Shown piece after piece: positions 23,227-51,952 of a stretch of DNA of 64,000 nt. Both the position numbers and the translations under genes were made by a program. Numbering within the stretch: the first letter of the stretch is position 1; each line of letters begins with the position of its first letter. Source of the stretch: Chloroflexota bacterium (GTDB taxonomy: Bacteria > Chloroflexota > UBA6077 > FW602-bin22 > JACPRP01); contig JAMCWX010000066.1 in NCBI GenBank assembly GCA_023480885.1, positions 37,467-101,466 on the forward strand. The letters run 5' to 3'. The notes under the pieces were generated by a model that had not been told where the DNA came from, did not search any database, and was given only the letters and a program-made list of their open reading frames with translations.

Positions 23227-23229
23227 CTC

Positions 23230-24390: not shown

Positions 24391-25172
24391 ACGTCACCGC
24401 TCCCCATTGCGCCGTCAACAATTACACTCGCTTGCCGGCGTAGTTCCTCCACGTCAGATAGGACGAACCCCAAAGTAAGATTGGCTATGCCGCGATAGAA
24501 GGGGTGGCGAGCGGCGTTCCCAACAGCCTGGCAGAACCTGTCTATCCACGGCGCCAACTGGGTCTCCAGGAAAGCCAGTTGCAGTCGAACGGATTCCTCA
24601 GCGGCCAGGATTCGCCCCGTGTTTAATGCCTCGGCCTCTCGGCCACACAAATGCTGCAAGAATTGCAATTCCAGGCCGATGTGGTCCGGCACCTCTCGCA
24701 GCTCGCCAGTCACGGCGAGCCCAGCTTCCAGGTACATTCTCTCCGCCGCTACGGCGGAGTCTCCCCAGAGTTGCCGTTTGTCCAGCCGCTTCCCATCGTT
24801 CGCTAGAGCTGTGCTGCCATCGCTTAACTCGTCAGAGTACATCGACTGGTATGGCGGGACGTAGTCCGGACCGGGAGCCACGAATAGCCGCGTGTATTCG
24901 ATTTCCATCTCCTCTAGCAGATCTTTCGCATCACGTCCGGGAACGAAAGCGTCCAGTTCCGCCGCGACGTGATCGAGCCCGACGTCGCGGAATGCTCGGA
25001 GCAATGTCCCATCCGCTATGGCTCGAACGACTTGCAGGGATGGAGGTTCCGCGTAGGCGCTGGCCAGGAGATTGTAGATGTTGGCCCGAGCCAGGGCGAC
25101 GATAGCCTTCTCTCCTCTTGCTGCTTCGATTTCGTGGTTATCACAAGCTACATTTCTGACCACGTGCGTCAC
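24378..25172 (-). CDS. TorD/DmsD-family molybdoenzyme maturation chaperone
   Basis: It is all-helical with ARANIYNLLASAYAEPP and FLQHLC segments typical of the family. GTG 25172 follows AGGAAGG by 5 nt and keeps the 25221-25251 palindrome intergenic. The track start is 25259. Confidence 0.7.
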   Translation of the reverse strand: MTHVVRNVACDNHEIEAARGEKAIVALARANIYNLLASAYAEPPSLQVVRAIADGTLLRAFRDVGLDHVAAELDAFVPGRDAKDLLEEMEIEYTRLFVAPGPDYVPPYQSMYSDELSDGSTALANDGKRLDKRQLWGDSAVAAERMYLEAGLAVTGELREVPDHIGLELQFLQHLCGREAEALNTGRILAAEESVRLQLAFLETQLAPWIDRFCQAVGNAARHPFYRGIANLTLGFVLSDVEELRRQASVIVDGAMGSGDVCSV

Positions 25173-25220
25173 CAATGCCTTCCTAAGTAGATTGGCTTTG
25201 TCGCTGCTATCCGTCCGCTT

Positions 25221-25251
25221 GGTAGAGGCAGGTTTCAAACCTGCCTCTACC
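25221..25251. repeat. perfect 15-bp-arm palindrome
   Basis: GGTAGAGGCAGGTTT-C-AAACCTGCCTCTACC lies between the catalytic-subunit stop (25324) and the chaperone gene. Confidence 0.85.
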
Positions 25252-25323
25252 AGGGACACGCTTTGTGCCCGATGGTTTAGTGTAGGTGCCGCTATGCCCG
25301 CGACGGTCGGTATCCCGCCATCG

Positions 25324-35677: not shown

Positions 35678-35864
35678 CAACTCCCTTTTCCCCCTTATCT
35701 TCGAATAGCCTTTGAGTTCCGAAACATCGCTAGCCAAACCGATTCGGCCTTTTCCAAACACTAATGATGCAATGCAGCGTAGTCTGAGTTTGCTGTTGCT
35801 TCAGCACCTCCTTTCCGGTAAGAAGCGATGCCGATAGCCGCTCACTGGCCCAAGTACGAGCGCC

Positions 35865-36551
35865 TCACCTCGTCACTCTGCTGGAGCTCCTCAGCTGGGC
35901 CTGAAAGCACGATGTTTCCAGTTTGGAGCACGTAGCCCCATAATGAGCGATCGCTAAGGCCAAGAAAGCGTTCTGCTCTACCAAGAGAATAGTGGTTTTC
36001 TCTTCGACATTGATCGTCCGGATTATACTGAAGATTTCTGTGATGACCTTCGGAGCAATGCCGAGAGATGGCTCGTCCAGCAGAAGCAGCTTAGGTCTGG
36101 CCATGAGAGCCCTGCTTATGGCGAGCATCTGCTGCTCCCCTCCGCTGAGCGTTCCGGCTGGCTGCGACCTTCGCTTCCCAAGGATGGGGAAGTAGTCTGT
36201 AACACGATCCAGGTCGCCCTTGATGTTGCTCTTGTCCTTCCGGCCATAAGCTCCCATCTTGAGGTTTTCGAGGACAGAAAGGCCGGCGAATACGTGTCTG
36301 CCTTCTGGGACGTGGGCGACGCCCATGCCGACGATGCGTTCTGCTGGAACGCGGTCGATACGCTTGCCCCATAACTCTATCGTTCCGTTCAGGGGATGAA
36401 CTACCCCAGAGATCGTGCGCAGAACGGTCGTCTTGCCCGCACCGTTGGCACCCAGGAGCGCCACGATCGAACGCTCAGGCACCTCCATAGAGACGCCTTT
36501 CAAGGCTTTGATCTTCCCGTAGGATGTTTCGACATCACTAAGCTTCAGCAA
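35865..36551 (-). CDS. livF: LivF-type ABC ATPase with a 3'-terminal +1 frameshift
   Basis: Walker A GANGAGKT, LSGGEQQ and Walker B LLLLDEP are present. After ...LALAIAHYG the frame loses homology. Removing one G from the G4 run (plus-strand CCCC 35936-35939) restores GYVLQTGNIVLSGPAEELQQSDEVRRSYLGQ, ending at 35842. Confidence 0.8.
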   Translation of the reverse strand: MLKLSDVETSYGKIKALKGVSMEVPERSIVALLGANGAGKTTVLRTISGVVHPLNGTIELWGKRIDRVPAERIVGMGVAHVPEGRHVFAGLSVLENLKMGAYGRKDKSNIKGDLDRVTDYFPILGKRRSQPAGTLSGGEQQMLAISRALMARPKLLLLDEPSLGIAPKVITEIFSIIRTINVEEKTTILLVEQNAFLALAIAHYGATCSKLETSCFQAQLRSSSRVTR

Positions 36552-37314
36552 GGGCGTTCTTCTCCCCTAAATAGGCTTCTATGACTGCCGGATTGGACTG
36601 AATTTCCGCAGGCGCCCCGTGAGCGATGTTTCTCCCAAAGTCCAGCACGTAGATGCGCTCACAGATGTTCATCACTAGAGTCATATCGTGTTCGACGAGC
36701 AGCATCGTGATCCCAAACTCATTGCGGATTTGGCGAATCAGCCCGGCTAGTTCCTTCGTTTCTTGATTGTTCCTTCCAGCTGCCGGCTCGTCGAGAAGTA
36801 TCAGCTTGGGATCGGACACCAACGCTCGTCCGAGCTCGATGATCTTCTGATATCCGAAAGGCAGATTCGAGACCACCTGGTCGAGCACACGGCTCAATCC
36901 GAGAATCTCGGCCACCCGGCAAGCCTTCACATATGCTTCCCTCTCAAAACGCCGAGCACTGGGGAAGGAGAGCATATTGGTCCACACGCTTCCAGTTCGG
37001 CAATGAAGGCCCACCATCATGTTCTGTAAGGTGGTCATTGTCTTGAACAGTTCGACGTTTTGGAAGGTGCGTGCGATGCCCAGCCCGATGATGTCGTGAG
37101 GCCTGCGCTGAAGAAGCTGATGCCCCTCGAAAACTAAGCTACCCTCGTCTGGGTGATAATATCTGCTGATACAATTGAAAAGGGTGGTCTTGCCTGCGCC
37201 ATTAGGGCCGATCAAGCCGACGATTTCTCCCTGATTGACCTCAAGGCTCACCCTGTCAAGAGCTAGCAGTCCGCCAAAACGTACAGTAACATCACGAGCT
37301 TGCAGTTGCGGCAT
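36538..37314 (-). CDS. livG: LivG-type ABC ATPase
   Basis: GPNGAGKTT, LPFGYQKIIELGRAL and LILLDEPAAG motifs. Confidence 0.85.
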   Translation of the reverse strand: MPQLQARDVTVRFGGLLALDRVSLEVNQGEIVGLIGPNGAGKTTLFNCISRYYHPDEGSLVFEGHQLLQRRPHDIIGLGIARTFQNVELFKTMTTLQNMMVGLHCRTGSVWTNMLSFPSARRFEREAYVKACRVAEILGLSRVLDQVVSNLPFGYQKIIELGRALVSDPKLILLDEPAAGRNNQETKELAGLIRQIRNEFGITMLLVEHDMTLVMNICERIYVLDFGRNIAHGAPAEIQSNPAVIEAYLGEKNALAEA

Positions 37315-37320
37315 GGCTAA

Positions 37321-38388
37321 TCAACTCTCCTTCACGCCTAGCAGATCTGTCCCGCTTGCCGGCGCATTTGCAGACTGGCTTTGCTCCGGCAACCTTCCCA
37401 ATTGACCCATGGGTTTAGCCACGTGCTGCTCGATGTCCTTCGCGGTCGTCCTACCCGTAACCAGATCCAGCAAGCGAGACAGAAAGGCGCTGATGCCACC
37501 AGGCATGAACAGAAGCACGACTAGCAAGGCCGCGCCCATCAGAATGAACGATAGATCCTGGAGCTCACCGAGCACATAAGGCACCGTGACCATGAAGATG
37601 CCGCCAATAACTGAGCCAAGCACAGAGGCCAGGCCGCCGATTACGATCATAGTCAAGAAGTCGATTGATAACCACATGTTGAAGTTCTCCGGTGCCAGGA
37701 AGCGGACCAGACTGGCGAAGAGAGCGCCGGCAATGCCTGTATAGAAGGCAGACATGGTGAAGGCAAGCGTTTTATACCTCGCCAGGCTTATACCCATGGC
37801 CTGAGCGGCGATCTCGCTATCGCGCAAGGCTATGAACGCCCGACCAACGCTGGAGCGAAGAATGCTAAGGGCCAGCAACGACATCACGATAGTCACAGCT
37901 AAGACGAAGTAGAAGTAAGAGCGATCATCCAGGACAAAACCTGCCAGAGAAGGTTTAGGTACGCTCAATCCTGCCCGACCGCCCGACACGGAATCCATAT
38001 TTTGCAGTATCTGCTCCACTGCAAGGCCGAATCCCAGAGTTGCTGTCGAAAGGTATGCCCCTGACAGACGCAAGGCTGGAATACCCAGGAGGAAGCCGAC
38101 GATGCCGCTGGCGAGCCCTGCCACCAGCATTCCAACCCAGAAAGGAGCGCCCAGATCGGTAATCAGCCTGGCCGAGGTGTAGGCGCCGATAGCCAGAAAG
38201 CCGGCGTGCCCCACGGACATCTGCCCCGTGTACCCAGTGAGAATGTTTATTCCTAACGCGACGATCACGTATATACAGATGAGCGATAGTAGATAGGTGA
38301 TGAAAGTCGTAGTGAAACTAGGAAGGAAAACCAGCACAACAAGGAGCGGTACCAACCAGAGAAGATGGTGTAGCCGAAAAGCCGTCAT
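37321..38388 (-). CDS. livM: LivM-type ABC permease
   Basis: Polytopic, with the family pattern GQMSVGHAGFLAIGAY. It has a C-terminal cytoplasmic tail. Confidence 0.85.
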   Translation of the reverse strand: MTAFRLHHLLWLVPLLVVLVFLPSFTTTFITYLLSLICIYVIVALGINILTGYTGQMSVGHAGFLAIGAYTSARLITDLGAPFWVGMLVAGLASGIVGFLLGIPALRLSGAYLSTATLGFGLAVEQILQNMDSVSGGRAGLSVPKPSLAGFVLDDRSYFYFVLAVTIVMSLLALSILRSSVGRAFIALRDSEIAAQAMGISLARYKTLAFTMSAFYTGIAGALFASLVRFLAPENFNMWLSIDFLTMIVIGGLASVLGSVIGGIFMVTVPYVLGELQDLSFILMGAALLVVLLFMPGGISAFLSRLLDLVTGRTTAKDIEQHVAKPMGQLGRLPEQSQSANAPASGTDLLGVKES

Positions 38389-38402
38389 TATCCCTCTTCC
38401 TT

Positions 38403-39272
38403 TTACACCTTAGCCTGGATCCGACGCCCGAACACCCCGGTTGGGCGAACCGCAAGCACTACCACGATGAGCACGAACGCAAAGGTCGTTCGCAGCTCGG
38501 TGGAAATGAACTCTCCCGCCAGGTTCTCGGCCACACCAATGAAAAGCCCTCCCACAATGGCACCAGGAAGGCTGCCGAAGCCACCGAGCACTGCCGCAGC
38601 GTAAGCCTTTACAAGAACGTCTGACATCATATTGGGACTCAAATAGACGAGAGGAGCAAGAAGGATTCCTGCAACCGCAGCCAAGGCGCCGCTCACTCCC
38701 CAGGTAAGTGCGAAGATCCTGCTAACGTTCACGCCCATCAACCGAGCCGCCATCCTATCTTCCGCCGTGGCCCGCATTGCCAGCCCGGCCGTCGTGTAAC
38801 GGAAGAACACGAACAGCACCGCGCTTATTATGAAACCGAAGGCGAGTATCCAGAGATGTCCCTGACCTATGACCACTCCGTTGACCGAAACAGGATCGGA
38901 GGGGAGAGGCGATGGAAACGCTTTGGTATCGCGACCCCAGATGGCTCCTGCAACACCGTGCAAGATCATATAGACACCCAAGGTAGCAATCATCAGGCTG
39001 AGCATAGAGGCATTCTTCATCGGTCTAATGGTTAGCCTATCCACCACCACCGCCAGAATCGCAGTAGTAACAATAGCCACAAGCGTTGCCAGCACGAAAG
39101 GGACTTTGAACTGGGAAATGGCCATAAGCGCTACGAAGGCCGCGACCATACCAAAGTCTCCCTGAGCGAAATTGACCACGTCCGTGTTCTTGAAGATCAG
39201 AACGAGGCCGAGGGCCGTAAGGGCGTAGAGGCTGCCGGCAGCCAATCCGCTTACCATCTGTTGAGCAATCAC
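38403..39272 (-). CDS. livH: LivH-type ABC permease
   Basis: Starting at GTG 39272 (5 nt after AGGAGG) gives IAQQMVSGLAAGSLYAL, the canonical LivH N-terminus. The track ORF extends to 39371. Confidence 0.85.
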   Translation of the reverse strand: MIAQQMVSGLAAGSLYALTALGLVLIFKNTDVVNFAQGDFGMVAAFVALMAISQFKVPFVLATLVAIVTTAILAVVVDRLTIRPMKNASMLSLMIATLGVYMILHGVAGAIWGRDTKAFPSPLPSDPVSVNGVVIGQGHLWILAFGFIISAVLFVFFRYTTAGLAMRATAEDRMAARLMGVNVSRIFALTWGVSGALAAVAGILLAPLVYLSPNMMSDVLVKAYAAAVLGGFGSLPGAIVGGLFIGVAENLAGEFISTELRTTFAFVLIVVVLAVRPTGVFGRRIQAKV

Positions 39273-39364
39273 TGGCACCTCCTGAATCAAGTTCGCCTCA
39301 AGCATCGAAAGACCACTGTTGCTGACAGGATGTCGGAGTCCGCGCAGACTCCCCAATATACTAT

Positions 39365-39468
39365 TGTACAAGCAGGTGTTATATCAGTGCATACTATATC
39401 GACACGGGTTATATCGACAAGCGTTGATGTTGCGTCAATATAGCACAGGTTTTGTGCTGTGTCAACAG
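39365..39468. repeat. copy 1 of a duplicated ~104-bp intergenic module
   Basis: About 75% identical to 39542-39644. It contains ATATCGA twice (39396-39402 and 39411-39417), plus TTGATGT, TATAGCACAGGTT and GTCAACAG. Confidence 0.8.
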
Positions 39469-39729: not shown

Positions 39730-39758
39730 TTGACATCGATTGATTTATATGCTAGTAT
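39730..39758 (+). promoter_or_regulatory. sigma70-like promoter of the methyltransferase/molybdoenzyme/arsDA operon
   Basis: TTGACA (39730-39735), 17 nt, TAGTAT (39753-39758), about 95 nt before GTG 39852. Confidence 0.5.
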
Positions 39759-39851: not shown

Positions 39852-40907
39852 GTGAAGCCAAGAGATAGGCTACTTATGGCGATCAAACATCAGCAGCCCG
39901 ACCTGGTGCCCTTGTTCATCCGCTACGTCGGCGCTGTGAGCAGCAAACTCTCCCGCATTCACGGCATCGCCGGACGCGACCTAGAAATCAAGCTTGGCAA
40001 CGACGGCGTGATCGTCCAGATCGGCATCAACGCCGAGTACAGCCATAAAGTGGTGCCCGATGGCGAGCGCTGGACTAGCGAATGGGGCGTTACCTACGAG
40101 GGTATGCGTGGCATCAGCCAGCCCGTTGACCATCCACTTAAGGAGCCAGATGTCTCGGGCTATATATGGCCCGATCCTCATAAGCCCGAGAGGATGGCCG
40201 AGATCAAACAGGCGATGGCCAGGTATCATAGCGACTACGCGGTGATGGTCGACCTCTCCTGCACCTTTCTGGAGGCAGGCTACGCGCACCTCCGAGGCAT
40301 GGAGAAGTTCATGATGGATCTTCACCTCAGTCGGGACTTCGCCTGCCAGGTGCTGGATGGCCTCAACACCTATTACACTGCCCTCGGCGTACACGCCATT
40401 GAGCAGGGAATCGACATCATTCGAATCGGCGACGACATCGCTGGACAGAATGGTATGCTCGTGCCCCCGAAGTTGTGGCGCGAACTGGTAAAGCCGCGAA
40501 TGGAATCGATGATCCACGCCTTCAGGAAAGCCAACCCAAACATCATCGTCAAATATCACTCGTGTGGCGATTTCAGCGCTATCATCCCCGATCTCATCGA
40601 CCTGGGCGTCGACTTCATCGGGACGATGCAGCCCTGCGGCCAACAGGTGGATATGGCAGCCATTAAGGCGAAATACGGCGACAAGCTGGCCTTTCTGGGC
40701 GGCCTGGACACACAGCAGCTTCTGCCAAACGGCTCGCCCGAAGAGGTGCGGGAGGCTGTGAAAGACGTCCTGCGTAGCTACGCGCCAGGCGGCGGCTACG
40801 TTTTTATGCCAGGGCACTACGTCAACTTGGACGTGCCGCTAGAAAACGTCTGGGCGCTGCTCTCGGCGGTGCACGATTACCGCAGGTATCCTTTGAACTT
40901 CGATTAG
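39852..40907 (+). CDS. UroD/MtaA-family (MT2-type) methyltransferase 1
   Basis: Uroporphyrinogen-decarboxylase-fold pattern with a Zn-type HSCG...QPCG motif and C-terminal APGGGYVFMPGH. GTG 39852 lies about 10 nt after AAGGAAGG. The track ORF starts at 39768. Confidence 0.8.
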   Translation: MKPRDRLLMAIKHQQPDLVPLFIRYVGAVSSKLSRIHGIAGRDLEIKLGNDGVIVQIGINAEYSHKVVPDGERWTSEWGVTYEGMRGISQPVDHPLKEPDVSGYIWPDPHKPERMAEIKQAMARYHSDYAVMVDLSCTFLEAGYAHLRGMEKFMMDLHLSRDFACQVLDGLNTYYTALGVHAIEQGIDIIRIGDDIAGQNGMLVPPKLWRELVKPRMESMIHAFRKANPNIIVKYHSCGDFSAIIPDLIDLGVDFIGTMQPCGQQVDMAAIKAKYGDKLAFLGGLDTQQLLPNGSPEEVREAVKDVLRSYAPGGGYVFMPGHYVNLDVPLENVWALLSAVHDYRRYPLNFD

Positions 40908-40942
40908 CCAGCTGAGGCAAGAAGAAGCTTGAGGTGTTCTTC

Positions 40943-41632
40943 ATGGAGATATCTACACAGGACGGTGAACGCTCAATGGCTGAAATAATGAAATCAGGAA
41001 CCCTGGAGAAGCTAGCGCAGGCCGTGCTAGAGGGGGCAGCGGAAGACGCCAAGAGACTTACAGAGAAAGCCCTGTCAGAGAGCTTACCCCCAAACACGGT
41101 TCTCGTCGAAGGGCTCTCGGCAGGAATGACAGTAGTGGGCGGGTTGTTCCGCCGCAACGAGATGTTCATCCCAGAGGTGCTGCTGTCAGCCCGAGCGATG
41201 CGTTTTGGTATGGAAGTGCTTCGGCCTCTACTGGCAGAGACGGGGGCCAAGCCTGTGGGCAAGGTGATCCTGGGAACGGTAGCCGGCGACCTGCACGACA
41301 TCGGCAAGGATATCGTGCACATGATGCTGGAAGGAGCCGGCTTTCAAGTGTTCAACCTGGGCATCAACGTGGAAGCTCATAAGTTCATCGAGGCCTTCCA
41401 AGAACACAAGGCACCAGTCATTGCGCTTTCCGCCCTCCTGAGCACCACTATGCCGCAGCAGAAGGCGGTAATCGAGGCATTCGAGAAGGCTGGCTTGCGC
41501 GGCGAGGTAAAGATACTGATCGGTGGGGCGCCTGTCACTCAAGAATACGCCGATAAGATAGGGGCAGATGGTTTCGCTCCTGATGCCGCTTCGGCAGTAC
41601 TGAAAGCAAAGGAACTCCTTGGAATCAGCTAA
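40943..41632 (+). CDS. corrinoid (B12-binding) protein 1
   Basis: N-terminal helical cap, then a B12-binding Rossmann domain with DxHxxG (GDLHDIGKDIV) and SALLSTT. ATG 40976 is an alternative start. Confidence 0.85.
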   Translation: MEISTQDGERSMAEIMKSGTLEKLAQAVLEGAAEDAKRLTEKALSESLPPNTVLVEGLSAGMTVVGGLFRRNEMFIPEVLLSARAMRFGMEVLRPLLAETGAKPVGKVILGTVAGDLHDIGKDIVHMMLEGAGFQVFNLGINVEAHKFIEAFQEHKAPVIALSALLSTTMPQQKAVIEAFEKAGLRGEVKILIGGAPVTQEYADKIGADGFAPDAASAVLKAKELLGIS

Positions 41633-41659
41633 TCTCCTACTTAATTGCGAGGTGTCGTT

Positions 41660-42829
41660 GTGACAAAAGCGATGACTTCACGGCAGCGCGTGCAAGTGGC
41701 GCTCGACCATCGCGAACCTGACAGGGTGCCGCTTGGCATTTGGTCGACGCTCGACGGCTACAAGAGACTACGATCCTATCTCGGTCTCCCAATCGCTGAA
41801 CAATATCCCGTCGGCTCCACTACATGGTCACGTGACGTTCCCGTCGAGTTCGACGTTATCGATAAGCTCGGCCTGGACGTCATCAGGGTCTGTGGACGAT
41901 GCCCCGGCGGCAAATCCCTGGAGAAAACTCCCGATGGCCTGTGGATCGACGAGTGGAGCGTCAAGAGAAAGCTCGTCGAGCATCCTTCGGGAACGTATCT
42001 CGAAATCGTCAATCCGCCCTTGAAGGACGCCACTGTAGATGACCTGGCGGATTATCCCTGGCCAGACCCATCAGACCCGGCAGTGTGGGAAGGGCTTGAA
42101 GAGAGAGTGAAACGCCTCTACGACGAGACCGACCTGGCCATCCTGGCTCAATTCGGCAGAGGTGGTATCTTCGAGCAGGCCAAGTACCTCCGCGGCTACG
42201 ACACCATTATGTACGATATGGCCGCAAATCCAGAATTTGTTATTGCCCTCTTCGACAAGCTGACGGAGGTCGAGATGAAGTTCAACGAGATCGGCATCGG
42301 TCTCATCGGCCAGTACATCAACATCCTTCGCCTTTCGCCCGAGGACCTGGCCACTGGCGACAGCACCTTCGTCTCGCCAAAAATGTTCGAGCGCATGCTC
42401 AGACCCTATTACAAGCGCAGCTTCTCCCTCGCCAGAAAACTCTTGAAAGAGAAGAATCCTCAGGCGAGGCTGCAGTTCCACAGCTGCGGCGCCGTTTATC
42501 CGTTGCTGAACGCACTCATCGAGGACGGAATGGAAATCTTCGATCCGTTGCAGCCGAGAGTGGCTGAAGGCTCTAGGCCTGCCAGGCTCAAGCAAGCCTT
42601 CGGAGACCGCATCGCTTTCTGGGGAGGAATTGACGTTCAGGTCACGCTTCCACGCGGCACCAAAGAGGAGATCGCCAAGGAGGTCAGGACGAGGATCGCG
42701 GAAGTGGCGCCAGGCGGAGGTTATATCCTCAGCTCCTCACACCGCATCCAACCAGATATCCCTCCTGAGAACGTCGTCGCGATGTATGAAGCAGCCAAAG
42801 AACACGGGGAATACCCGATAAAAGCATAG
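41660..42829 (+). CDS. UroD/MtaA-family methyltransferase 2
   Basis: Same fold as methyltransferase 1 (FHSCGAVYPLL, APGGGYILSSSH), but without the second Cys of the QPCG position. GTG 41660 lies 5 nt after GAGGTG. Confidence 0.8.
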   Translation: MTKAMTSRQRVQVALDHREPDRVPLGIWSTLDGYKRLRSYLGLPIAEQYPVGSTTWSRDVPVEFDVIDKLGLDVIRVCGRCPGGKSLEKTPDGLWIDEWSVKRKLVEHPSGTYLEIVNPPLKDATVDDLADYPWPDPSDPAVWEGLEERVKRLYDETDLAILAQFGRGGIFEQAKYLRGYDTIMYDMAANPEFVIALFDKLTEVEMKFNEIGIGLIGQYINILRLSPEDLATGDSTFVSPKMFERMLRPYYKRSFSLARKLLKEKNPQARLQFHSCGAVYPLLNALIEDGMEIFDPLQPRVAEGSRPARLKQAFGDRIAFWGGIDVQVTLPRGTKEEIAKEVRTRIAEVAPGGGYILSSSHRIQPDIPPENVVAMYEAAKEHGEYPIKA

Positions 42830-42844
42830 TGCGGGGAGATATGC

Positions 42845-43495
42845 ATGGAAATCTTTGAGCAAATCAGCAATGCCGTCATCGAGGGCGAGTTCGGCGAAAT
42901 CACAGACCTTGTGCAGAGTGCGCTCGATCAGGGAATCGGAGCCAACGAAGTCATCCGAGAGGGCCTGTCGAAGGGAATGACTGAGGTGGGACGCCGCTTC
43001 CGCGAAGGCGAATATTTTATGCCTGAGGTCCTGGTTTCCGCCAAGACCATGAACACCGCGCTGTCGATACTGAAACCACTTCTCGTCGGCGATACCACCC
43101 AAGAGAACGTGGGAACCTTTCTTATCGGCACCGTCAAAGGCGACGTGCACGACATTGGCAAGAATATGGTATCCATGATGATGGAAGGCGCTGGCTTTAG
43201 AGTGATCGATATTGGCGTCGACGTAAAGCCAGAGGTCTTCGTGAAAGAGATAACGGAAAAGCAGCCCGATGTCGTTGGACTTTCAGCCTTGCTCTCCACG
43301 ACGATGATCTCGCAGAAAGAGACCATCGAGGCGCTCAAAGAGGCGGGCGTACGAGATAGAGTGATCGTTCTTGTTGGAGGAGCTCCTGTCGACCAAAACT
43401 GGGCCAACACTATTGGGGCAGACGGATATGCTCCCAATGCCAGCGTAGCGGTTGAGAAGGCGAAGGAGCTACTGCAGCGGCGACCCCACAGCTAG
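42845..43495 (+). CDS. corrinoid (B12-binding) protein 2
   Basis: DxHxxG as GDVHDIGKNMV, SALLSTTM and GGAPV. Paralogous to corrinoid protein 1. Confidence 0.85.
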   Translation: MEIFEQISNAVIEGEFGEITDLVQSALDQGIGANEVIREGLSKGMTEVGRRFREGEYFMPEVLVSAKTMNTALSILKPLLVGDTTQENVGTFLIGTVKGDVHDIGKNMVSMMMEGAGFRVIDIGVDVKPEVFVKEITEKQPDVVGLSALLSTTMISQKETIEALKEAGVRDRVIVLVGGAPVDQNWANTIGADGYAPNASVAVEKAKELLQRRPHS

Positions 43496-43521
43496 CTCGA
43501 TCTAGATGAAGGGAGAGACAC

Positions 43522-44070
43522 ATGACCCGCTTAGCGCTAGTAATAGATTTGAACAAGTGCATTCTATGCCACGCTTGCACCGTATCCTGCAAGATTCATC
43601 ACGACCTGCCGCTCGGGCAGTTCTGGAACGAGGTCTTCACTGTCGGGCCAAGCGGAGAGTTCCCGCACACGTCTCTGTATGGATTCCCCAAAGCATGTAT
43701 GCAATGCGACAAGCCCGCCTGTGTTTCCGTTTGTCCAGCAAGGGCCACGGAAAAGGACAAGGAAACTGGGGTGGTCAAAATCTACGAGGACAAGTGCGTT
43801 GGTTGCCGCTCCTGCATCGTGGCCTGCCCTTACGGTGCGCGTGCCTTCGACGAGACTAAAGGAACGACGTTCAAGTGCGAACTCTGCCCAGAGAGGCGCG
43901 AGCAAGGCAAGCAACCCATCTGCGTCGAGACCTGTGTCGGAGGAGCGCGAGTCTTTGGCGACATCGACGACCCAAACAGCGAAGCCTACAAGATCGTTCA
44001 CGAAAAACACGCGGTCAGGTATCTGGAGCATCTGGGCACAGAGCCCTGCACCAGCTACGTGCCAGCCTAG
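43522..44070 (+). CDS. four-cluster 4Fe-4S subunit (DmsB/PsrB-like), no signal peptide
   Basis: LVIDLNKCILCHACTVSCK, CMQCDKPACVSVCP, CVGCRSCIVACP and CELC...CVETC. Confidence 0.9.
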   Translation: MTRLALVIDLNKCILCHACTVSCKIHHDLPLGQFWNEVFTVGPSGEFPHTSLYGFPKACMQCDKPACVSVCPARATEKDKETGVVKIYEDKCVGCRSCIVACPYGARAFDETKGTTFKCELCPERREQGKQPICVETCVGGARVFGDIDDPNSEAYKIVHEKHAVRYLEHLGTEPCTSYVPA

Positions 44071-44120
44071 CTTCAGGACAACGTTCTCTGATTGGCCAGA
44101 GACGAAACAGGGGATGAAAC

Positions 44121-44981
44121 ATGAAAAGACGAAGAGCCAACACGTGGGACATTAGGATCGCCTCTTATCTTTTCCTGGCGGGCGTTGGCGCCGGAGCATT
44201 CGGGTCGCTGGCACTGCTCGATTACCTCGAAGGGGGCAAGCTGCACCTTCCCACCAGCATCACTGCCCTGCTCTCCCTCCTGCTCATAGGCATCGGAACC
44301 TTGCTGCTAGTATCGGACCTGGGAAAGCCACTGCGCTTCTGGCGAGTGCTGTTGAACCCGATGAGTTCTATGCTTTCGGTTGGCGCCTGGATACTGATCT
44401 TGTTCGCCCTCACGATGCTGGGCTACCTGGGCTTCGGGGGACCAGTGTTCAGCCTTGGTGGTGTGGTATTCGCGATAGCAACAGCAGGATACACAGGAAT
44501 CCTGCTGGGAGTAATAAAGGCTAGGCCATTCTGGAATAGTCCCGCGCTTCCACTGCTGTTCGTGACATCGGCCTTTTCCACTGGCATAGCGGTTGTGACG
44601 GTGCTCGCCTCAGCGCTGGTGATCTACGGCCTGGACGCGCAGAGCTCGCACCTGCTCTCGCAGGTCGATCTATGTCTGATCGTCGCCGAGCTAGCAATCA
44701 TTGGTTTGTACTTGACCATCATGAACAATTCCGCCGCGCCTGCGGCCAGGTCGGTTGAGATGTTGCTGAGAGGGAAGCAAGCCAACACATTCTGGGGCGG
44801 GCTGATCTTCGCCGGTCTGGTGGTACCGCTCGTTCTCGCCCTCGCCAGTTCCGAAGGGGTAACGAACCTGCTCTCCTCGATTCTGGTGCTGATAGGAGGG
44901 TTCTCTCTCAGATACACATTCCTGGCGGCAGGAACTCGTGCACTCCTGCCAGGGGAGCCCGCCGAGGCAAGTTACCTGTGA
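44121..44981 (+). CDS. NrfD/DmsC-type membrane anchor subunit
   Basis: 286-aa, about 8-TM protein with IASYLFLAGVGAGAF and SDLGKPLRFWRVL motifs. Confidence 0.8.
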   Translation: MKRRRANTWDIRIASYLFLAGVGAGAFGSLALLDYLEGGKLHLPTSITALLSLLLIGIGTLLLVSDLGKPLRFWRVLLNPMSSMLSVGAWILILFALTMLGYLGFGGPVFSLGGVVFAIATAGYTGILLGVIKARPFWNSPALPLLFVTSAFSTGIAVVTVLASALVIYGLDAQSSHLLSQVDLCLIVAELAIIGLYLTIMNNSAAPAARSVEMLLRGKQANTFWGGLIFAGLVVPLVLALASSEGVTNLLSSILVLIGGFSLRYTFLAAGTRALLPGEPAEASYL

Positions 44982-45006
44982 CGTGGTGGATAGAAGGGAG
45001 GCCTTT

Positions 45007-47220
45007 ATGATCGTAGCGACTGGGAACGAAACCCAAGCAAGCAGCATAACCTCTGCTCAATTCAATACGAATACGTCGCAGACGCGCGTTTACATAGAGG
45101 GTGACGAGAAGAAGGGCGGCTACATCGCCAGCCATTGCCTGCAATGCGTATCGAACTGCGGCCTCCGAGCTTTCGTTAAGGATGGGAAAGTACGTTACCT
45201 CGAAGGGAACCCCCTCGATCCTAACAGCAGGGGCCGAATGTGCGCCAAAGGGCAGGCTGGTGTCCAGCAGATTTACGATCCTGATCGCGTGAAGAATCCC
45301 CTGGAAAGGGTTGGTGAGAGGGGAAGCGGCAAGTGGCGTGACATCTCATGGGACGAAGCCATGCAGAAGATATCCAGCAGGCTGCGGAGGCTGCGAGACA
45401 GCGGACATCCTGAACAGTTCGTGTTCTACAGCGGCCGCAACATGCAGGCCGGTTACACTACTCGCTTCACCAATGCCTTCGGCAGTCCCAACCATTTCAA
45501 CCACGACAGCCTTTGCGCATCAGGACGCCAGATGGCCACGTTACTCACTTACGGAGACACCTGGCCTCAGATGGACATCGAGAACGCCCGCTACGTTCTG
45601 CTGTTCGGCTTCAGCGCCTTCGACGCGGGGATTTGCTTCGTTCCTGCCGCCCAGAGGCTGGTAAACGCTTTGAGCAAAGGTGCGAAGCTCGTCGTCGTGG
45701 ACCCCAGGCTGAGCAAGACGGCCGCCAAGGCCAGCGAATGGATTTCCATCGCGCCAGGGACCGATGCAGCCCTGGCTATGGGCATAATGAACGTCATAGT
45801 CTCCGAGGGCCTCTACGACCGCGAATTCGTGGAACATTGGACCGTCGGGTTCGATGATTTCGTCGAGAAGGAGTTGAAGCGCTTCACACCAGAGTACGCA
45901 TCGAGCATTTGCCGCGTGCCAGCAGAGAAAATCGGGGAGCTAGCGTGGGACTTCGCCACAACGAGGCCGGCCGTTGCGGATGCGATGCGAGGAGTGTCAG
46001 CTCATACGAATGGCACCGTGTCCATACGCGCAGTGATGGCGCTAAACGTCTTGCTTGGAAATATCGATGACATCGGTGGAATGAACCTGGACTTCGGCTG
46101 GTGGAACATCGGCCTGGGCGCTGTGGATCCCGTCCCACCGGCTCCCAAAGAGACGCGAAGGCTGGACCGTCTGGGCACTTCGCAGTACCCGCTGGCCGCC
46201 GTGCCTATCCAGCAGCAAATCCTCCCCTCGATCGCCGAGCGAGATCCGTACCCGGCCGACACCGTGATGCTGTATCACTCGAGTCCAGCCTACGCCATGC
46301 CTGACCCGAAGAAACAGATGAACATACTCAAGAATCCCGACAAAGTTCCATTCATCATCTCTGTCGATCCCTTCATGGGAGAGTCGACGACGTTCGCCGA
46401 TATCGTCCTGCCAGAAGGCACCTACCTGGAGAGATATGATGCTGTTTCCTGGCCATACAGCCTGCAATTTACCCCATACGTTTTCCTTCGCAAACCCGTG
46501 GTTCCCCCGCAACTCGAATCGAGAATGGTGAAAGACATCTTGAGAGAGCTAGCTCATCGCATAGGCGGGGGCATGGAACAATACTTCGCCGACGACGCCG
46601 TAGCTTATCATCGAAAAGAGATCGAGGGAATCACAAACGGGCCGTCGTGGGATGAGATAGTTAAGAATGGCGTGTGGGTGGCCCCTGCGAAGCGCGAAAC
46701 CCAAAGGTTCAGAAAGAACGGCTTCTTTACCCCCTCAGGCAAGATCGAGCTCTACAGCAAGCGGATGGATGATGCTGGATTCCCCCCTTTCCCAACCTAT
46801 GTTCCGGTAGCTACCCATGACGCCGAACGCCGGCAGCAATACCCATTCTGCTTGATAACCTACAAGGTGGCGATGCACAACCAGTCGCGCACAGCTAACG
46901 TGCCGTTCCTGGTCGAGGTTATGGACCGTAATTATGCCGAGATAAACCCGAAGTCGGCCGCGAGCCTTGGAATTCGCGACGGCGACGAAGTGTACGTCGA
47001 ATCCGAAATCGGACGCATCGAAGGGGTTGCACGCTTGACCAATGAGATTAGACAGGATACTATAGCGATATCCCATCACTTTGGCCATTGGGAGTACGGT
47101 AGGGTTGCGAAGGGCCGAGGCATTAGCCCGAATCCAATCGTGGCCTGCAACGACGATGGCATCGGCGCCCCGGCGGCCTTCAACAGCACCCTCGTCAGGG
47201 TCTATAAGAAGTTAAAGTAG
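45007..47220 (+). CDS. molybdopterin oxidoreductase catalytic subunit without a Tat signal (substrate unknown)
   Basis: ATG 45007 lies 5 nt after GAAGGGAGG. It has a polar N-terminus, Fe-S motif C-x2-C-x3-C-x27-C (CLQCVSNC...CAKG), candidate Mo-ligand Cys in NHDSLCASG, and 737 aa. Confidence 0.9.
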   Translation: MIVATGNETQASSITSAQFNTNTSQTRVYIEGDEKKGGYIASHCLQCVSNCGLRAFVKDGKVRYLEGNPLDPNSRGRMCAKGQAGVQQIYDPDRVKNPLERVGERGSGKWRDISWDEAMQKISSRLRRLRDSGHPEQFVFYSGRNMQAGYTTRFTNAFGSPNHFNHDSLCASGRQMATLLTYGDTWPQMDIENARYVLLFGFSAFDAGICFVPAAQRLVNALSKGAKLVVVDPRLSKTAAKASEWISIAPGTDAALAMGIMNVIVSEGLYDREFVEHWTVGFDDFVEKELKRFTPEYASSICRVPAEKIGELAWDFATTRPAVADAMRGVSAHTNGTVSIRAVMALNVLLGNIDDIGGMNLDFGWWNIGLGAVDPVPPAPKETRRLDRLGTSQYPLAAVPIQQQILPSIAERDPYPADTVMLYHSSPAYAMPDPKKQMNILKNPDKVPFIISVDPFMGESTTFADIVLPEGTYLERYDAVSWPYSLQFTPYVFLRKPVVPPQLESRMVKDILRELAHRIGGGMEQYFADDAVAYHRKEIEGITNGPSWDEIVKNGVWVAPAKRETQRFRKNGFFTPSGKIELYSKRMDDAGFPPFPTYVPVATHDAERRQQYPFCLITYKVAMHNQSRTANVPFLVEVMDRNYAEINPKSAASLGIRDGDEVYVESEIGRIEGVARLTNEIRQDTIAISHHFGHWEYGRVAKGRGISPNPIVACNDDGIGAPAAFNSTLVRVYKKLK

Positions 47221-47259
47221 CCATAAAAGCACAGCAAAGCCAAGAGGAGACAGCCAGTA

Positions 47260-48132
47260 ATGTTGCGAACCACTATATTCAGCGAGAAGCGAGAAGTGAC
47301 GATAGCACGAGACCTGCCGACCATCCTAATCGGCGAGAGGATCAACCCAACTGGCAAGAGGAAGCTTGCCACAGCGCTTATGGAAGGAAACTGGGATTAT
47401 GTGAAAGAGATGGCCATCAAGCAGGTTGAGGCTGGAGCCCACGTGCTGGACGTCAACGTTGGCGTCGGCGGCATCGACGAAGCGGAGTATCTGGTAGCTG
47501 CCATCAAAGCCGTGTCTGAGGCAGTCGACGTGCCTCTCTGCATTGACTCTTCGGATCCAAAGGCCCTGGCCGCTGCCCTCGGGTCTTATAAGGGGAAGGC
47601 GCTGGTGAATTCTGTCACAGGAGAGGAAGGCAGCCTCGAAACAGTGCTTCCCCTGGTAAAGCAGTACGGAGCAGCCGTTATCGCGCTATGCATGGACGAG
47701 CATGGATGTGCCGTGGATGTCGAGGGCCGCACAGCTGTCGCTAGAAAGATTATCGACAGGGCGGACCGACTGGGCATCCCTCGTGAAGATATCATAGTAG
47801 ACTGCCTTACCATGACAGTTGGAGCCGATTCCAAGGCTGCGCTGGTGACCCTCGAAGCAACAAGCCGTGTTGTCGCGGAGTTTGACGTGAACATAACGTC
47901 GGGCGCCAGCAATATCTCCCACGGGCTTCCGGTGCGCGAGGTGATAAACGCCGCTTTCCTGGCGATGATGATTGCTGCCGGTTTGACGGCGCCCATCGTC
48001 GACCCCACTGCCCCTGGGATAACTCAAGCGATTCTTGCAGCCGACTTAGTGATGGGCCGTGATGACTACGCCGCTCGCTATATTCGCCATTATCGCAAAA
48101 TGATGAAGGCGGCGGCTGCTCGCGCGAATTGA
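47260..48132 (+). CDS. pterin-binding methyltransferase (methyl-THF:corrinoid, MeTr/MtrH-like)
   Basis: Pterin-binding TIM-barrel pattern (ILIGERINPTG, HVLDVNVG, PLCIDSS, LVNSVTGEE, SNISHGLP). Confidence 0.8.
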   Translation: MLRTTIFSEKREVTIARDLPTILIGERINPTGKRKLATALMEGNWDYVKEMAIKQVEAGAHVLDVNVGVGGIDEAEYLVAAIKAVSEAVDVPLCIDSSDPKALAAALGSYKGKALVNSVTGEEGSLETVLPLVKQYGAAVIALCMDEHGCAVDVEGRTAVARKIIDRADRLGIPREDIIVDCLTMTVGADSKAALVTLEATSRVVAEFDVNITSGASNISHGLPVREVINAAFLAMMIAAGLTAPIVDPTAPGITQAILAADLVMGRDDYAARYIRHYRKMMKAAAARAN

Positions 48133-48155
48133 GGTAATTTGTCAGGGAGGACAAC

Positions 48156-48506
48156 ATGACGAAGGACGAAGTCAAGGTTGAGGTATTCGAGAAAGTGTCG
48201 TGCTGTGGCGGTGGCGCCTGCGGCCCCAATGCCGATCCTGAGGCAGTCGCCTTCACGGAAGCAACTTGGAGCCTTCGAAGAAGGGGCATCCCCGTTCATC
48301 TCTACTCTTTGCCCGCAGATGTCAAAGTCTTCGCCGAACACCCGCTGATCAAGAGGCTGATTTCCGAGAGCAAAGGTCCGCTGCTGCTTCCGATCACGAT
48401 AGTGAACAACATTGTCGTCAAAGTCGGCTCCAATCCTACTCTCGCAGAACTCGAAGACGCCCTCGGAATGAACAATCAGCCGGTCCAGGAAGGAACTTCC
48501 GCATGA
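48156..48506 (+). CDS. arsD: arsenic metallochaperone ArsD
   Basis: CC-x4-C site (SCCGGGACGP) and overall collinearity with ArsD (FTEATWSLRRRGIPVHLYSL...LLLPITIVNN). Confidence 0.85.
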   Translation: MTKDEVKVEVFEKVSCCGGGACGPNADPEAVAFTEATWSLRRRGIPVHLYSLPADVKVFAEHPLIKRLISESKGPLLLPITIVNNIVVKVGSNPTLAELEDALGMNNQPVQEGTSA

Positions 48507-49390
48507 GCACAAACTTTGCCTTTGTTTCAGGTAAAGGCGGAGTTGGCAAGACCTCTATTGCCTGTGCCATAGCTTTGTATCACGCCGAACACGGCGAGTA
48601 CACGCTCATTGTCACGACCGACCCCGCTCCCAACCTTTCCGACGTCTTCGAGCAGCCCATAGGGCACAACATCACCGCGATCAACAGCGTCGAGCGTCTC
48701 TCCGCGATTGAGATCGACCCAGACATCACCGCCGAAGAGTATCGGGAGCGCTATCTGGCCCCGCTGCGCGAGATTCTTCCACCAGAGATGGTGGCAGTAG
48801 TTGCCGAGCAACTGGCCTCTCCCTGCACCTCGGAAGTAGCCTCCTTTGACAAGTTTGCCGATTTCTTCGAGGCGTCCGGGGTCGACTTTATCGTTTTCGA
48901 CACGGCCCCTACTGGCCATACAGTTCGCCTCCTGGAACTGCCCGCAGATTGGACGCGGCATATTGATCGCCTCACTGAAGGTGGACATTCGTGCGCTGGG
49001 GCAGTTGCTAATATTAAGGAGTCAAGGGCCAAATATGATCGAGCAGTCGCGGCGTTGAGGAACCCCGAGCAGACGTCGTTCATATTCGTCGTGCAGCCGG
49101 AGGCGACGCCCATTGCTGAGACAGAGCGCACGCTCTCACAACTGGAGCGGGTAGGAGTGACGGCGAAAGAGTTGATTATCAACGGCATCATACCATCGGA
49201 ACAGTGCGAAGTACCCTTCTTCCGGAAGCGGCGCGAAATGCAAGACCACTACATCGAAGAGATACACCGTCGCATCCCGCTGCCAAGCAAGTCCCTTTAC
49301 TTTTTCGATGAAGAGGTCAAGGGTCTGGAAATGATACGTAAGGTTGGAAGGACACTTAATCAGAATGGACAGCTTAGTACGTCCCAATAG
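48503..49390 (+). CDS. arsA: arsenite-stimulated ATPase ArsA, N-terminal (A1) half as a separate ORF
   Basis: The ATG overlaps the arsD stop (ATGA). It has SGKGGVGKTS, DTAPTGHT, and the A1 As-binding Cys equivalents (SPCTSEV, GHSCAGA). It ends at TAG 49388-49390. Confidence 0.85.
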   Translation: MSTNFAFVSGKGGVGKTSIACAIALYHAEHGEYTLIVTTDPAPNLSDVFEQPIGHNITAINSVERLSAIEIDPDITAEEYRERYLAPLREILPPEMVAVVAEQLASPCTSEVASFDKFADFFEASGVDFIVFDTAPTGHTVRLLELPADWTRHIDRLTEGGHSCAGAVANIKESRAKYDRAVAALRNPEQTSFIFVVQPEATPIAETERTLSQLERVGVTAKELIINGIIPSEQCEVPFFRKRREMQDHYIEEIHRRIPLPSKSLYFFDEEVKGLEMIRKVGRTLNQNGQLSTSQ

Positions 49391-50324
49391 GAAAGACGGC
49401 GTGGTGGATATCATCAAGCCAGGGCCTAAGGGTGATAGGATGGTATTCTTCGCTGGCAAGGGTGGTGTCGGCAAAACTTCGACGGCGTGTGCGACTGCCG
49501 TCTGGCTGTCCCGCGCCGGGTACCGCACTCTCCTCTTGACTACCGATCCTGCTTCCCACCTCAGCGACGTATTCGAGCAGCCGGTTACAGATAAGGTGCG
49601 GGAACTCGGTGGCTTGCCTGGATTATTCGCGGCGCGGATTGATCCGAAGCGCGCGGCGGAAGACTACAAGCAGCGCATACTTGACGACATGAAGGGTAAA
49701 CACTCCGCGGATGTGCTGGCCGTCGTCGAAGAGGAACTCGACGCACCGTGCACCGAGGAAATGGCGACCTTCGACCTCTTCGTCTCTTATGCCAGTTCCA
49801 CCGAGTACGACGTGATGGTCTTCGACACCGCGCCAACGGGACACACCCTCAGGCTGCTCCAGCTTCCCATCGAATGGAGCAAGCAGATTCAAGTCAAGGT
49901 ATACGCGTCGGTAGACAGTCAGCAAGCAGGGGAGACGACTAAGGCGAAGTTTGGTCAGGTGATAGATCGCATGCGAGATGTTAGACGCACGACGTTTTCC
50001 TTTATAATGTATCCTGAGGCCACTCCCGTCGTCGAAGCGTATCGGGCGGCTCGTGACATCGAGACGTTAGGTATCAGCGTAGGATTCGTCATAGCAAATC
50101 AAGTGCTTCCCGAAGAGCATTGCACCAACGCCTATTTCAAGAAGCGCTTCGCGATGCAGCAAAAGTACCTTCAGGAAATGAAAGACCGCTTCGGCGTGCC
50201 GATTCTGCAAATGCCCCTGCTGGAGCACGACGTCAGAGGTATTAGCACCTTGATCAGAATAGGAGACGTGCTCTTCGGCCAACCAGTCAGCCCACACTCA
50301 AGGGCGACATCAGCACCATTGTGA
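49365..50324 (+). CDS. arsA: ArsA C-terminal (A2) half as a separate ORF
   Basis: AGKGGVGKTS, DTAPTGHT and the A2 Cys equivalent (APCTEEM). It is in a different frame from A1. ATG 49365 overlaps A1 by 26 nt. ATG 49440 (after AAGGGTGA) is an alternative start. Confidence 0.8.
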   Translation: MDSLVRPNRKDGVVDIIKPGPKGDRMVFFAGKGGVGKTSTACATAVWLSRAGYRTLLLTTDPASHLSDVFEQPVTDKVRELGGLPGLFAARIDPKRAAEDYKQRILDDMKGKHSADVLAVVEEELDAPCTEEMATFDLFVSYASSTEYDVMVFDTAPTGHTLRLLQLPIEWSKQIQVKVYASVDSQQAGETTKAKFGQVIDRMRDVRRTTFSFIMYPEATPVVEAYRAARDIETLGISVGFVIANQVLPEEHCTNAYFKKRFAMQQKYLQEMKDRFGVPILQMPLLEHDVRGISTLIRIGDVLFGQPVSPHSRATSAPL

Positions 50325-50491: not shown

Positions 50492-50569
50492 GTGAACCGC
50501 TAGGCAACCCTCGATTGTATACCATTATGGGTGAAACCTACCTTCAAATCGAGACCAATGGAGGTCAAA

Positions 50570-51952
50570 ATGGATGACCACTCGGTGTCTTCGGTTGACC
50601 AGCGGCGCATAATCCTCATTTGCGTTGCGCTTGCGATCGCACTGCTTATCATCGTGGCCTTCCTCGGTGGTTGCACCGACCAGAAGGCAACGCCCACGTC
50701 CAAGCCAGCAGCAGAGGTCGCTCCTGCCAGCGCAACGCGCGTTGCCCAACCGACAGCAGCTCAGGGCGCGGCTTCGAAGACAGGACAGGCCGAAACCGCG
50801 AAGCCCCAGGCCACAGATGCGTCCAAGCCAGCCGCTACCCCACAGGCTAAGGAAACGCCAGCAGCAGTCGTTCAGGAGAAAGGGGCCGGGCCAAACATTC
50901 CCCACTCCCCCAAAGGACGTGACGACTGTCTAGCCTGCCACTCCAGACTGGTGGTGTGGCCCGTGCCTGCAAGCCACGAAGGCCGCGGCAATGAGACATG
51001 CCAGGCTTGCCACAAGCCTTTGGCGGGCGGCCCACCAAAGATCGCCCATACACTGGACGGGAAGTCGGACTGTGTAGCGTGCCACGGCGAAGGCAAGCTA
51101 GTCAAGCTGCCGCAGAGCCACGCGAAAAGGACGTCTTCCAACGTGTGCGTTGTTTGCCACCAGCAGACTACCACGCCCACTACTATCGCGCATACGTTAG
51201 AAGGCAAAACCAACTGCACGCAGTGCCACGGCGATGGCAAGATAGTGGCGTTGCCAGCGAGCCACGCCGGCAGAACCGAGCAGATGTGCCAGGTCTGCCA
51301 CACGCAGACGACGACACCCACAAAGATCGCGCACACTCTGGAGGGCAAGACGAATTGCACCGGTTGTCACGGCGACGGCAAACTGGTGAAGCTGCCGCAG
51401 AGCCACGCCGGCAGAACCGAGCAGATGTGCACGCTCTGTCACACGCAAACGACTCAACCCAACACGATCGCACATACGTTGGAAGGAATGACAAACTGCA
51501 CATCGTGCCACGCCGATGGCAAGCTAGTGCCGTTGCCAGCAAGCCACGCCGGCAGAACGGAGCAGATGTGCCAGATTTGTCACGCGCAGACGATGCAGCC
51601 GCCCACCATCGCACACACGTTGGAAGGCAAAGTCAACTGCACGCAGTGCCACGGCACTGGGAAGCTAGTGGCGCTACCGGCTTCTCACGCCAAGAGGACG
51701 GAGCAAATGTGCGCCGTGTGTCACACGAAGACTATGGATCCGCCAAGGGCACCGCACACCACATCTGACAAGCCTTCGTGTATCGCGTGCCACGACGGCA
51801 AGAAGGTGAAGGCGGCGCCAGCGAATACCCACCAGGGTAGGACCGACCAGATGTGCGCTATCTGCCACGCGCCTGTCTCAGGAGGCGTTCCAAAGATACC
51901 GCACACGCTAGAGGGCCGCTCTGACTGCACGATGTGCCACACGAAGCAGTAG
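50570..51952 (+). CDS. lipoprotein-anchored multihaem c-type cytochrome (15 CxxCH) built of tandem modules
   Basis: ATG 50570 lies 5 nt after GGAGG. It has a signal/TM segment ending in lipobox FLGGC, an Ala/Pro/Thr/Gln/Lys-rich linker of about 75 aa, then 15 CxxCH motifs. Confidence 0.85.
   Translation: MDDHSVSSVDQRRIILICVALAIALLIIVAFLGGCTDQKATPTSKPAAEVAPASATRVAQPTAAQGAASKTGQAETAKPQATDASKPAATPQAKETPAAVVQEKGAGPNIPHSPKGRDDCLACHSRLVVWPVPASHEGRGNETCQACHKPLAGGPPKIAHTLDGKSDCVACHGEGKLVKLPQSHAKRTSSNVCVVCHQQTTTPTTIAHTLEGKTNCTQCHGDGKIVALPASHAGRTEQMCQVCHTQTTTPTKIAHTLEGKTNCTGCHGDGKLVKLPQSHAGRTEQMCTLCHTQTTQPNTIAHTLEGMTNCTSCHADGKLVPLPASHAGRTEQMCQICHAQTMQPPTIAHTLEGKVNCTQCHGTGKLVALPASHAKRTEQMCAVCHTKTMDPPRAPHTTSDKPSCIACHDGKKVKAAPANTHQGRTDQMCAICHAPVSGGVPKIPHTLEGRSDCTMCHTKQ
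50897..51949 (+). repeat. intragenic tandem repeat, 141-147-bp period (47-49-aa di-haem module, 7.5 copies)
   Basis: Module starts at 50897, 51041, 51185, 51326, 51467, 51608, 51749 and 51896. Consensus: IAHTLEGKTNCTxCHGDGKLVxLPxSHAGRTEQMCxxCHTQTxxPxx. Confidence 0.9.

Follow-up and report, generated by a model that had tools for sequence, protein, structure and literature searches.

A conserved corrinoid methyltransferase and molybdoenzyme module with adjoining arsenic genes in a Chloroflexota bacterium, a tentative candidate for anaerobic methylarsenical demethylation

Corrinoid-dependent methyltransferases differ in the ligands of their zinc site, which are His-Cys-Cys in S/Se-methyltransferases and include carboxylates in O-demethylases (PMC10418091). 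A link between corrinoid chemistry and arsenic is known from hgcAB, a corrinoid methylation system under arsenic regulation (bioRxiv 10.1101/2022.10.17.512643). Dimethylated arsenicals (DMAs) cause straighthead disease in rice, and their demethylation in flooded soils is documented. This anaerobic process is linked to corrinoids and methylotrophs. Before it can start, DMAs(V) must be reduced to DMAs(III) by bacteria whose enzymes are not known, and reports have so far been limited to correlations with methanogens and to bacterial reductions of unidentified origin (PMC10579292; bioRxiv 10.64898/2026.08.27.747368). Here we describe a gene cluster from a 64,000-nucleotide stretch of DNA of a Chloroflexota bacterium (GenBank assembly GCA_023480885.1, contig JAMCWX010000066.1, positions 37,467 to 101,466; the whole stretch is called the window below). 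Eleven plus-strand genes at window positions 39852-50324 encode two pairs of corrinoid methyltransferase and corrinoid protein, a membrane-anchored molybdenum (Mo) enzyme complex, a methyl-tetrahydrofolate (THF):corrinoid methyltransferase (MeTr) and the arsenic proteins ArsD, ArsA1 and ArsA2. The first seven of these genes are a core that is kept in at least 7 lineages of uncultured anaerobes. All parts belong to known families, and their coupling is without description in the literature that could be searched. Unusual for these families are the predicted orientation of an NrfD-anchored Psr-type enzyme towards the cytoplasm, the putative His-Cys-His site of UroD methyltransferases and, in the window, a split pair of paralogous ArsA genes. 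To our knowledge, no characterised enzyme family is known to cleave the C-As bond, or to demethylate methylarsenicals, under anaerobic conditions.

Gene content of the cluster

Domains of the window open reading frames (ORFs) were assigned with Pfam and NCBIfam profiles. These searches bear out a preliminary description of the locus, which had listed, on eleven plus-strand ORFs, two pairs of UroD/MtaA-type methyltransferase and B12-binding protein with the motifs GDLHDIG and GDVHDIG, a 4x[4Fe-4S] subunit, an NrfD-type membrane subunit, a 737-aa molybdopterin subunit, a pterin-binding MeTr and an ArsD with a CC-x4-C motif whose stop overlaps the start of ArsA. The genes are tightly packed. The junctions, given earlier as -26 to +50 nt, measure -4 to +50 nt with the corrected gene starts.

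The first methyltransferase, MT1 (39852 with a GTG or 39876 with an ATG start, to 40907), belongs to the UroD/MtaA family and is followed by CP1 (40943-41632), an MtbC/MtgC-type corrinoid protein with B12-binding_2 and B12-binding domains. The second pair consists of MT2 (41660-42829), a UroD-type paralogue of MT1 with 28% identity to it and orthologues in 7 lineages, and CP2 (42845-43495), which is 50% identical to CP1. The DxHxxG motif reads GDLHDIG in CP1 and GDVHDIG in CP2, and the best NCBIfam families for both proteins are MtgC/MtbC. The closest solved relative of MT1 and MT2 is MtaA of M. mazei (4ay7). In all 13 methyltransferases compared, which come from 7 lineages, an HxC motif is combined with a His where MtaA has Cys316, as seen in MT2; the Cys of this motif is the sole Cys conserved among the 13 proteins. 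In MT1 these residues point to a Zn site made up of His228, Cys230 and His314. By this predicted ligand set, MT1 and MT2 are separated both from the S/Se-methyltransferases with His-Cys-Cys and from the carboxylate-ligated O-demethylases. An assignment of MT1 to the O-demethylase type (OdmB/VdmB) was rejected, as its nearest solved relative is MtaA and its ligands are His-Cys-His, not carboxylate.

Together with the MeTr (47260-48132; PRK07535 above cut-off), the UroD methyltransferases and the corrinoid proteins with their His-on DxHxxG motifs give the cluster the composition of a methyltransferase I (MT I), corrinoid protein and methyltransferase II (MT II) system. A reductive activase (RamA/RACE) is not present within the cluster, and two RamA-like (RACo-family) genes are found elsewhere in the genome. 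The window MeTr shares only 37-39% identity with the MeTrs of the module in other lineages, as compared with 57-77% for module orthologues. Its nearest relatives (about 60% identity), from Chloroflexota metagenome-assembled genomes (MAGs), are located in MttB/MtgB-type clusters, and the usual slot of the module MeTr between CP1 and MT2 is vacant in the window. Judged by these comparisons, the window MeTr is a xenolog of the module's own MeTr.

The Mo complex has the composition of the Psr/Phs/Arr type. It comprises a four-[4Fe-4S] electron-transfer subunit resembling NrfC, PsrB and TtrB (43522-44070), an NrfD/PsrC-type integral membrane (quinone) anchor (44121-44981) and a Psr/Phs-like Mo-bisPGD catalytic subunit of 737 aa with an Fe4S4 domain (45007-47220). 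The top PDB match of the catalytic subunit is PsrA of T. thermophilus (2vpw; E 4e-92), followed by ArrA (6cz7). Identity to E. coli PhsA is 32%, and Cys170, which aligns with the Mo ligand of PsrA, is conserved. The NCBIfam models rank in the order PhsA, DmsA, FdhA and ArrA, all under their curated cut-offs (score/cut-off 446/694 for PhsA, 322/778 for DmsA and 255/1600 for ArrA). By these scores the subunit falls in none of the named clades PhsA, PsrA, ArrA, DmsA, TtrA and TorA. A twin-arginine (Tat) signal is absent from 7 of 7 Mo subunits of the module, whereas Psr-like relatives outside the module do bear such signals. Thus the Mo enzyme would work in the cytoplasm, where the methyltransferases act. 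Membership in the DMSO-reductase group of DmsA, TorA and BisC was rejected on the low scores and the missing Tat signal.

ArsD (48156-48506) scores above the Pfam gathering threshold, and its CC-x4-C motif is formed by Cys16, Cys17 and Cys22. Its TGA stop is overlapped by the ATG of ArsA1 (48503-49390) as ATGA, which was verified. ArsA1 ends at an in-frame stop (49388-49390), and a ribosome-binding site, AAGGG, precedes the start of ArsA2 at 49440 (49440-50324). Cys108 and Cys164 of ArsA1 align with Cys113 and Cys172 of E. coli ArsA (1F48), and Cys104 of ArsA2 aligns with Cys422. Hence all three As(III)-binding positions are kept, as the preliminary description had stated, but its view of one ArsA in two halves does not hold. 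The two proteins are 37% identical, and each is nearer to the A1 half of full-length ArsA. On these alignments they are two paralogous single-domain arsenite ATPase genes, both A1-like, and not a split A1-A2 ArsA; a single polypeptide with both domains is not encoded at the locus. The gene order and this split are also present in DNA contigs that two other studies assembled independently. An origin of the split by frameshift or misassembly was rejected in view of the stop, ribosome-binding site and ATG, the independent assemblies and the paralogy of the two proteins. No membrane partner of the ArsB or Acr3 type is found in the operon. The genome carries ArsB, Acr3 and ArsP away from the cluster. 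The earlier statement that the operon holds neither a RamA-type activase nor an efflux permease is therefore correct, both types being encoded elsewhere in the genome.

Conservation, arsenic genes and surroundings

The lineages compared, nearly all represented by MAGs and contigs, were the window and those designated L017, L019-21, L022/23, L053/54, L055 and L056. Across them the core of MT1, CP1, MT2, CP2, Fe-S subunit, membrane subunit and Mo subunit is kept. Mo homologues with 53-55% identity led to L017, L019-21 and L022/23, and a search with MT2 led to L053/54, L055 and L056. The Mo subunits of the module split into two groups about 35% apart. In L053/L054 (lineage B) a NarI-like membrane anchor replaces NrfD. 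Reference genomes seldom contain the module. Searches for related loci in genome and metagenome contigs gave only distant Mo relatives (26-40% identity) with no module attached. Across the phylum in GTDB, no Mo homologue reached E ≤ 1e-150 beyond the organism's own genome, and plasmids searched by tblastn yielded nothing closer than distant PhsA-like proteins (32%) and weak UroD matches.

Four of the 7 lineages have arsenic genes adjoining the core, each time as a different set. Besides arsD-arsA1-arsA2 in the window, these are arsA-arsR-arsD in L022, arsR-arsD-arsA-arsC (LMW-PTP) in L053 and PadR-arsP in L017, ArsP being the methylarsenite efflux permease. ArsD is only 30-39% identical between lineages, thus the arsenic sets were apparently acquired independently. 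The window cluster, on this comparison, is the conserved core with a locally added block of MeTr, arsD, arsA1 and arsA2. With a MeTr that is not orthologous to that of the module, the eleven-gene set is a composite, so that the earlier term 'eleven-gene operon' describes adjacent genes rather than one inherited unit. The preliminary description had proposed a check of gene order in related genomes and had linked the system to arsenic. The seven-gene core recurs in the other lineages, but the MeTr-arsDA block is local to the window, and the arsenic link recurs without arsDA being obligatory.

Small-neutral-solute channels are encoded in the module of three lineages, an MIP aquaglyceroporin in two and AmiS/UreI in one (L053/L054). 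Channels of both kinds can pass trivalent arsenicals. The organism itself was found in metagenomes of mine tailings, mine drainage and sediment in 3 studies. An association of ArsA with a Mo enzyme exists outside the methyltransferase module too: at L039, which has no methyltransferases, a Tat-bearing Psr-like Mo enzyme has a single-domain ArsA directly upstream and multiheme cytochromes downstream.

In the genome (88.7% complete), MetF, MetH, MetE and DsrA were not detected. It contains two copies of CdhC, the beta subunit of carbon monoxide dehydrogenase/acetyl-CoA synthase (CODH/ACS), and a second pterin-binding MeTr, together with the RamA-like activases. The host may run the acetyl-CoA pathway and yet lack known methionine synthases. 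A role of the module as methionine synthase, prompted by the undetected MetF, MetH and MetE, was set aside, as it has no positive support.

Upstream of the module and divergent from it lies a complete branched-chain ABC transporter of the Liv type, LivKHMGF (34373-39371, minus strand). As a LivK homologue (55% identity) is also located upstream of the module in L017, this transporter may import the substrate. A sigma-70-like promoter with a consensus match of 10 of 12 (TTGACA-17-TAGTAT, 39730-39758, plus strand) precedes MT1. The site is present as claimed before, but 13 such sites were seen across the 11.7-kb region compared with 5.9 expected from shuffles, and it is thus weak evidence. Downstream, 206 nt 3' of ArsA2, a multiheme c-type cytochrome of the Cyt_c7/MtrC-like type (50531-51952, plus strand) has about 15 hemes in repeated AHTLEGK...CxxCH units and is possibly an electron-transfer partner of the Mo complex. 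In L055, L039 and L040, too, multiheme cytochromes flank either the module or Mo genes of the Psr-like kind. A second putative molybdoenzyme locus in the window (22858-27711, minus strand) encodes a c-type cytochrome, a 4Fe-4S protein, a NarJ/TorD-like chaperone and a 795-aa ORF. At 21019-22253 on the minus strand, an ArsR-family regulator (21873-22253) lies beside a truncated Acr3/SBF gene (21019-21816; profile positions 1-74 of 191), which is possibly a decayed arsR-acr3 locus.

Possible function and alternatives

From the gene content, the domains, their conservation, the absence of a Tat signal, the Zn-site residues, the recurrent co-location with arsenic genes and the habitat, we infer an arsenical as substrate, demethylation as direction and a role for each redox step. 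The module may, as the tentative reading that we favour, be a cytoplasmic system that demethylates methylated arsenicals (DMAs and monomethylated arsenicals, MAs) in anoxic settings rich in arsenic. Facing the cytoplasm, the Mo complex with its NrfD anchor would shift the oxidation state of arsenic, most likely by reducing pentavalent methylarsenicals with menaquinol or, alternatively, by re-oxidising trivalent intermediates. The two pairs of methyltransferase and corrinoid protein would strip the two methyl groups one after another, and a MeTr would pass them to THF in a genome that also encodes CODH/ACS. In the window, ArsD would catch the freed As(III) and deliver it to a heterodimeric ATPase of ArsA1 and ArsA2, which would drive the ArsB and Acr3 efflux pumps encoded elsewhere in the genome. 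A stricter version of this reading, which we consider rather doubtful, is a dedicated anaerobic machine for C-As cleavage that combines menaquinone-linked As(V)/As(III) cycling by the Mo enzyme, His-Cys-His methyltransferases and efflux by ArsD, ArsA1 and ArsA2. Between the redox steps, the two methyl groups of dimethylarsenicals would then be moved to cob(I)amide corrinoid proteins and from there to THF.

Several observations weigh against an arsenical substrate. Within about 10 kb of the core no arsenic gene is found in 3 of the 7 lineages (L019-21, L055 and L056), and arsDA is thus not obligatory. The arsDA genes of the window arrived with a non-orthologous MeTr, which marks them as a local addition, and in metal-rich habitats arsenic-resistance genes often hitchhike on genomic islands. 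Among characterised Mo enzymes, those nearest to that of the module are the thiosulfate and polysulfide reductases PhsA and PsrA, not ArrA or ArxA, and the methyltransferases are nearest to MtaA-type coenzyme M methyltransferases. Moreover, the module is located near sox sulfur genes in L056 and near Mo-cofactor genes in L055, which fits sulfur or selenium chemistry. The sequence alone also gives no direction, demethylation or methylation.

These affinities of the Mo enzyme and of the MtaA/SCMT-like methyltransferases, and the sox genes close to L056, favour a demethylation of methyl-sulfur or methyl-selenium compounds, modelled on the Mts systems of Methanosarcina and on Mlp clusters, whose SCMT homologues serve methyl-Se/S metabolism (PMC10418091). 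Methyl groups of dimethyl sulfide, methanethiol or methylselenols would pass through a MeTr to THF, the Psr-like complex would carry out a sulfur or selenium redox step such as polysulfide or DMSO-like reduction, and the arsenic genes would be hitchhikers from metal-resistance islands. We regard this as somewhat unlikely, as the Zn site is His-Cys-His where S/Se-methyltransferases typically have His-Cys-Cys, the Mo enzyme falls outside the named clades of sulfur enzymes (all scores under cut-offs), the arsenic genes recur in 4 of 7 lineages by independent acquisition, and no selenium or sulfur genes adjoin the window cluster.

Two further explanations appear improbable. The pathway could run in reverse and methylate arsenic, with methyl groups passing from CH3-THF via MeTr and the corrinoid proteins to a UroD-type methyltransferase and As(III) to give MAs(V). 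Between methylations, the Mo complex would use menaquinol to reduce MAs(V) and DMAs(V), so that methylarsenicals in trivalent or volatile form result, and ArsP would export MAs(III) in L017. The ArsP gene adjoining the module in that lineage and the ArsR-type regulators in L022 and L053 agree with this, and methylcobalamin can methylate arsenite chemically. However, MetF for the supply of CH3-THF was not detected in the 88.7% complete genome, the more toxic trivalent methylarsenicals would be of little gain in arsenic-rich habitats, and ArsD, ArsA and ArsC suggest that the output to be handled is inorganic As(III)/As(V). A different methyl donor, for example a methylated amino-acid-like compound imported by the Liv-type transporter, has an equally low standing. 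Its methyl groups would be channelled via THF and the CODH/ACS of the genome to acetyl-CoA, and the arsenic genes would be incidental. This is in line with the Liv-type transporter adjoining the module in two lineages, with CdhC and a RamA-like activase in the genome, and with the fact that bacterial MT I/corrinoid protein/MT II systems mostly serve carbon and energy metabolism. It lacks a substrate-specific clue, however, leaves the Mo complex unexplained and does not account for the recurrent association with arsenic genes.

If demethylation of methylarsenicals is the true function, the module would be the enzyme set behind anaerobic dimethylarsenate demethylation in paddy soils and mine wastes, and it would offer a concrete, testable candidate for anaerobic C-As cleavage. 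Even with methyl-S or methyl-Se as substrate, the module would be one not described before.

Relation to known systems

The Mo complex resembles PsrABC of T. thermophilus (2VPW) and PhsABC in its Mo-bisPGD subunit with an N-terminal Fe4S4 domain and a Cys as Mo ligand, its four-cluster Fe-S subunit and its NrfD/PsrC anchor. It differs from them in a catalytic subunit that lacks a Tat signal and is predicted to be cytoplasmic, in an identity of only 32-38% and in being joined to corrinoid methyltransferases. ArrAB and ArxAB belong to the same Psr/Arr superclade and are often located near ars genes, but the catalytic subunit of the module reaches only 255 of 1600 bits with the ArrA equivalog model, and the module has an NrfD-type anchor, a putative cytoplasmic orientation and a methyl-transfer part.

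With MtaA, MtbA and MtsA and the corrinoid proteins MtaC and MtbC of Methanosarcina, the module shares UroD-fold Zn methyltransferases acting with small corrinoid proteins. Unlike these SCMTs, the bacterial proteins have a predicted His-Cys-His site, occur as two paralogous pairs and would deliver methyl groups via MeTr to THF instead of coenzyme M. Type 1 Mlp clusters likewise combine several methyltransferases homologous to SCMTs with a corrinoid protein in anaerobes, but they include a RamA activase, have His-Cys-Cys sites and a link to methyl-Se/S and contain no Mo complex, whereas the module has the Mo complex, His-Cys-His and no RamA (PMC10418091). The route from donor to corrinoid protein, MeTr and CH3-THF is that of chloromethane utilisation by CmuA/CmuB and of the MT I/corrinoid protein/MT II O-demethylases of acetogens. 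The methyltransferases of the module are SCMT-like, unlike those of these systems, and are coupled to a membrane-bound Mo oxidoreductase.

The arsenic genes of the window correspond to arsRDABC of E. coli R773 in the CC-x4-C motif of ArsD, the P-loops of ArsA and the equivalents of Cys113, Cys172 and Cys422. In contrast to R773, ArsA consists of two A1-like single-domain genes, and ArsB and Acr3 are encoded outside the operon. Finally, the mercury methylation genes hgcAB with their ArsR-like regulator resemble the module in that corrinoid methyl transfer is connected with ars operons and the regulation by arsenic, but the corrinoid protein HgcA is a single one, located in the membrane, and acts with a ferredoxin and without UroD methyltransferases or a Mo enzyme (bioRxiv 10.1101/2022.10.17.512643).

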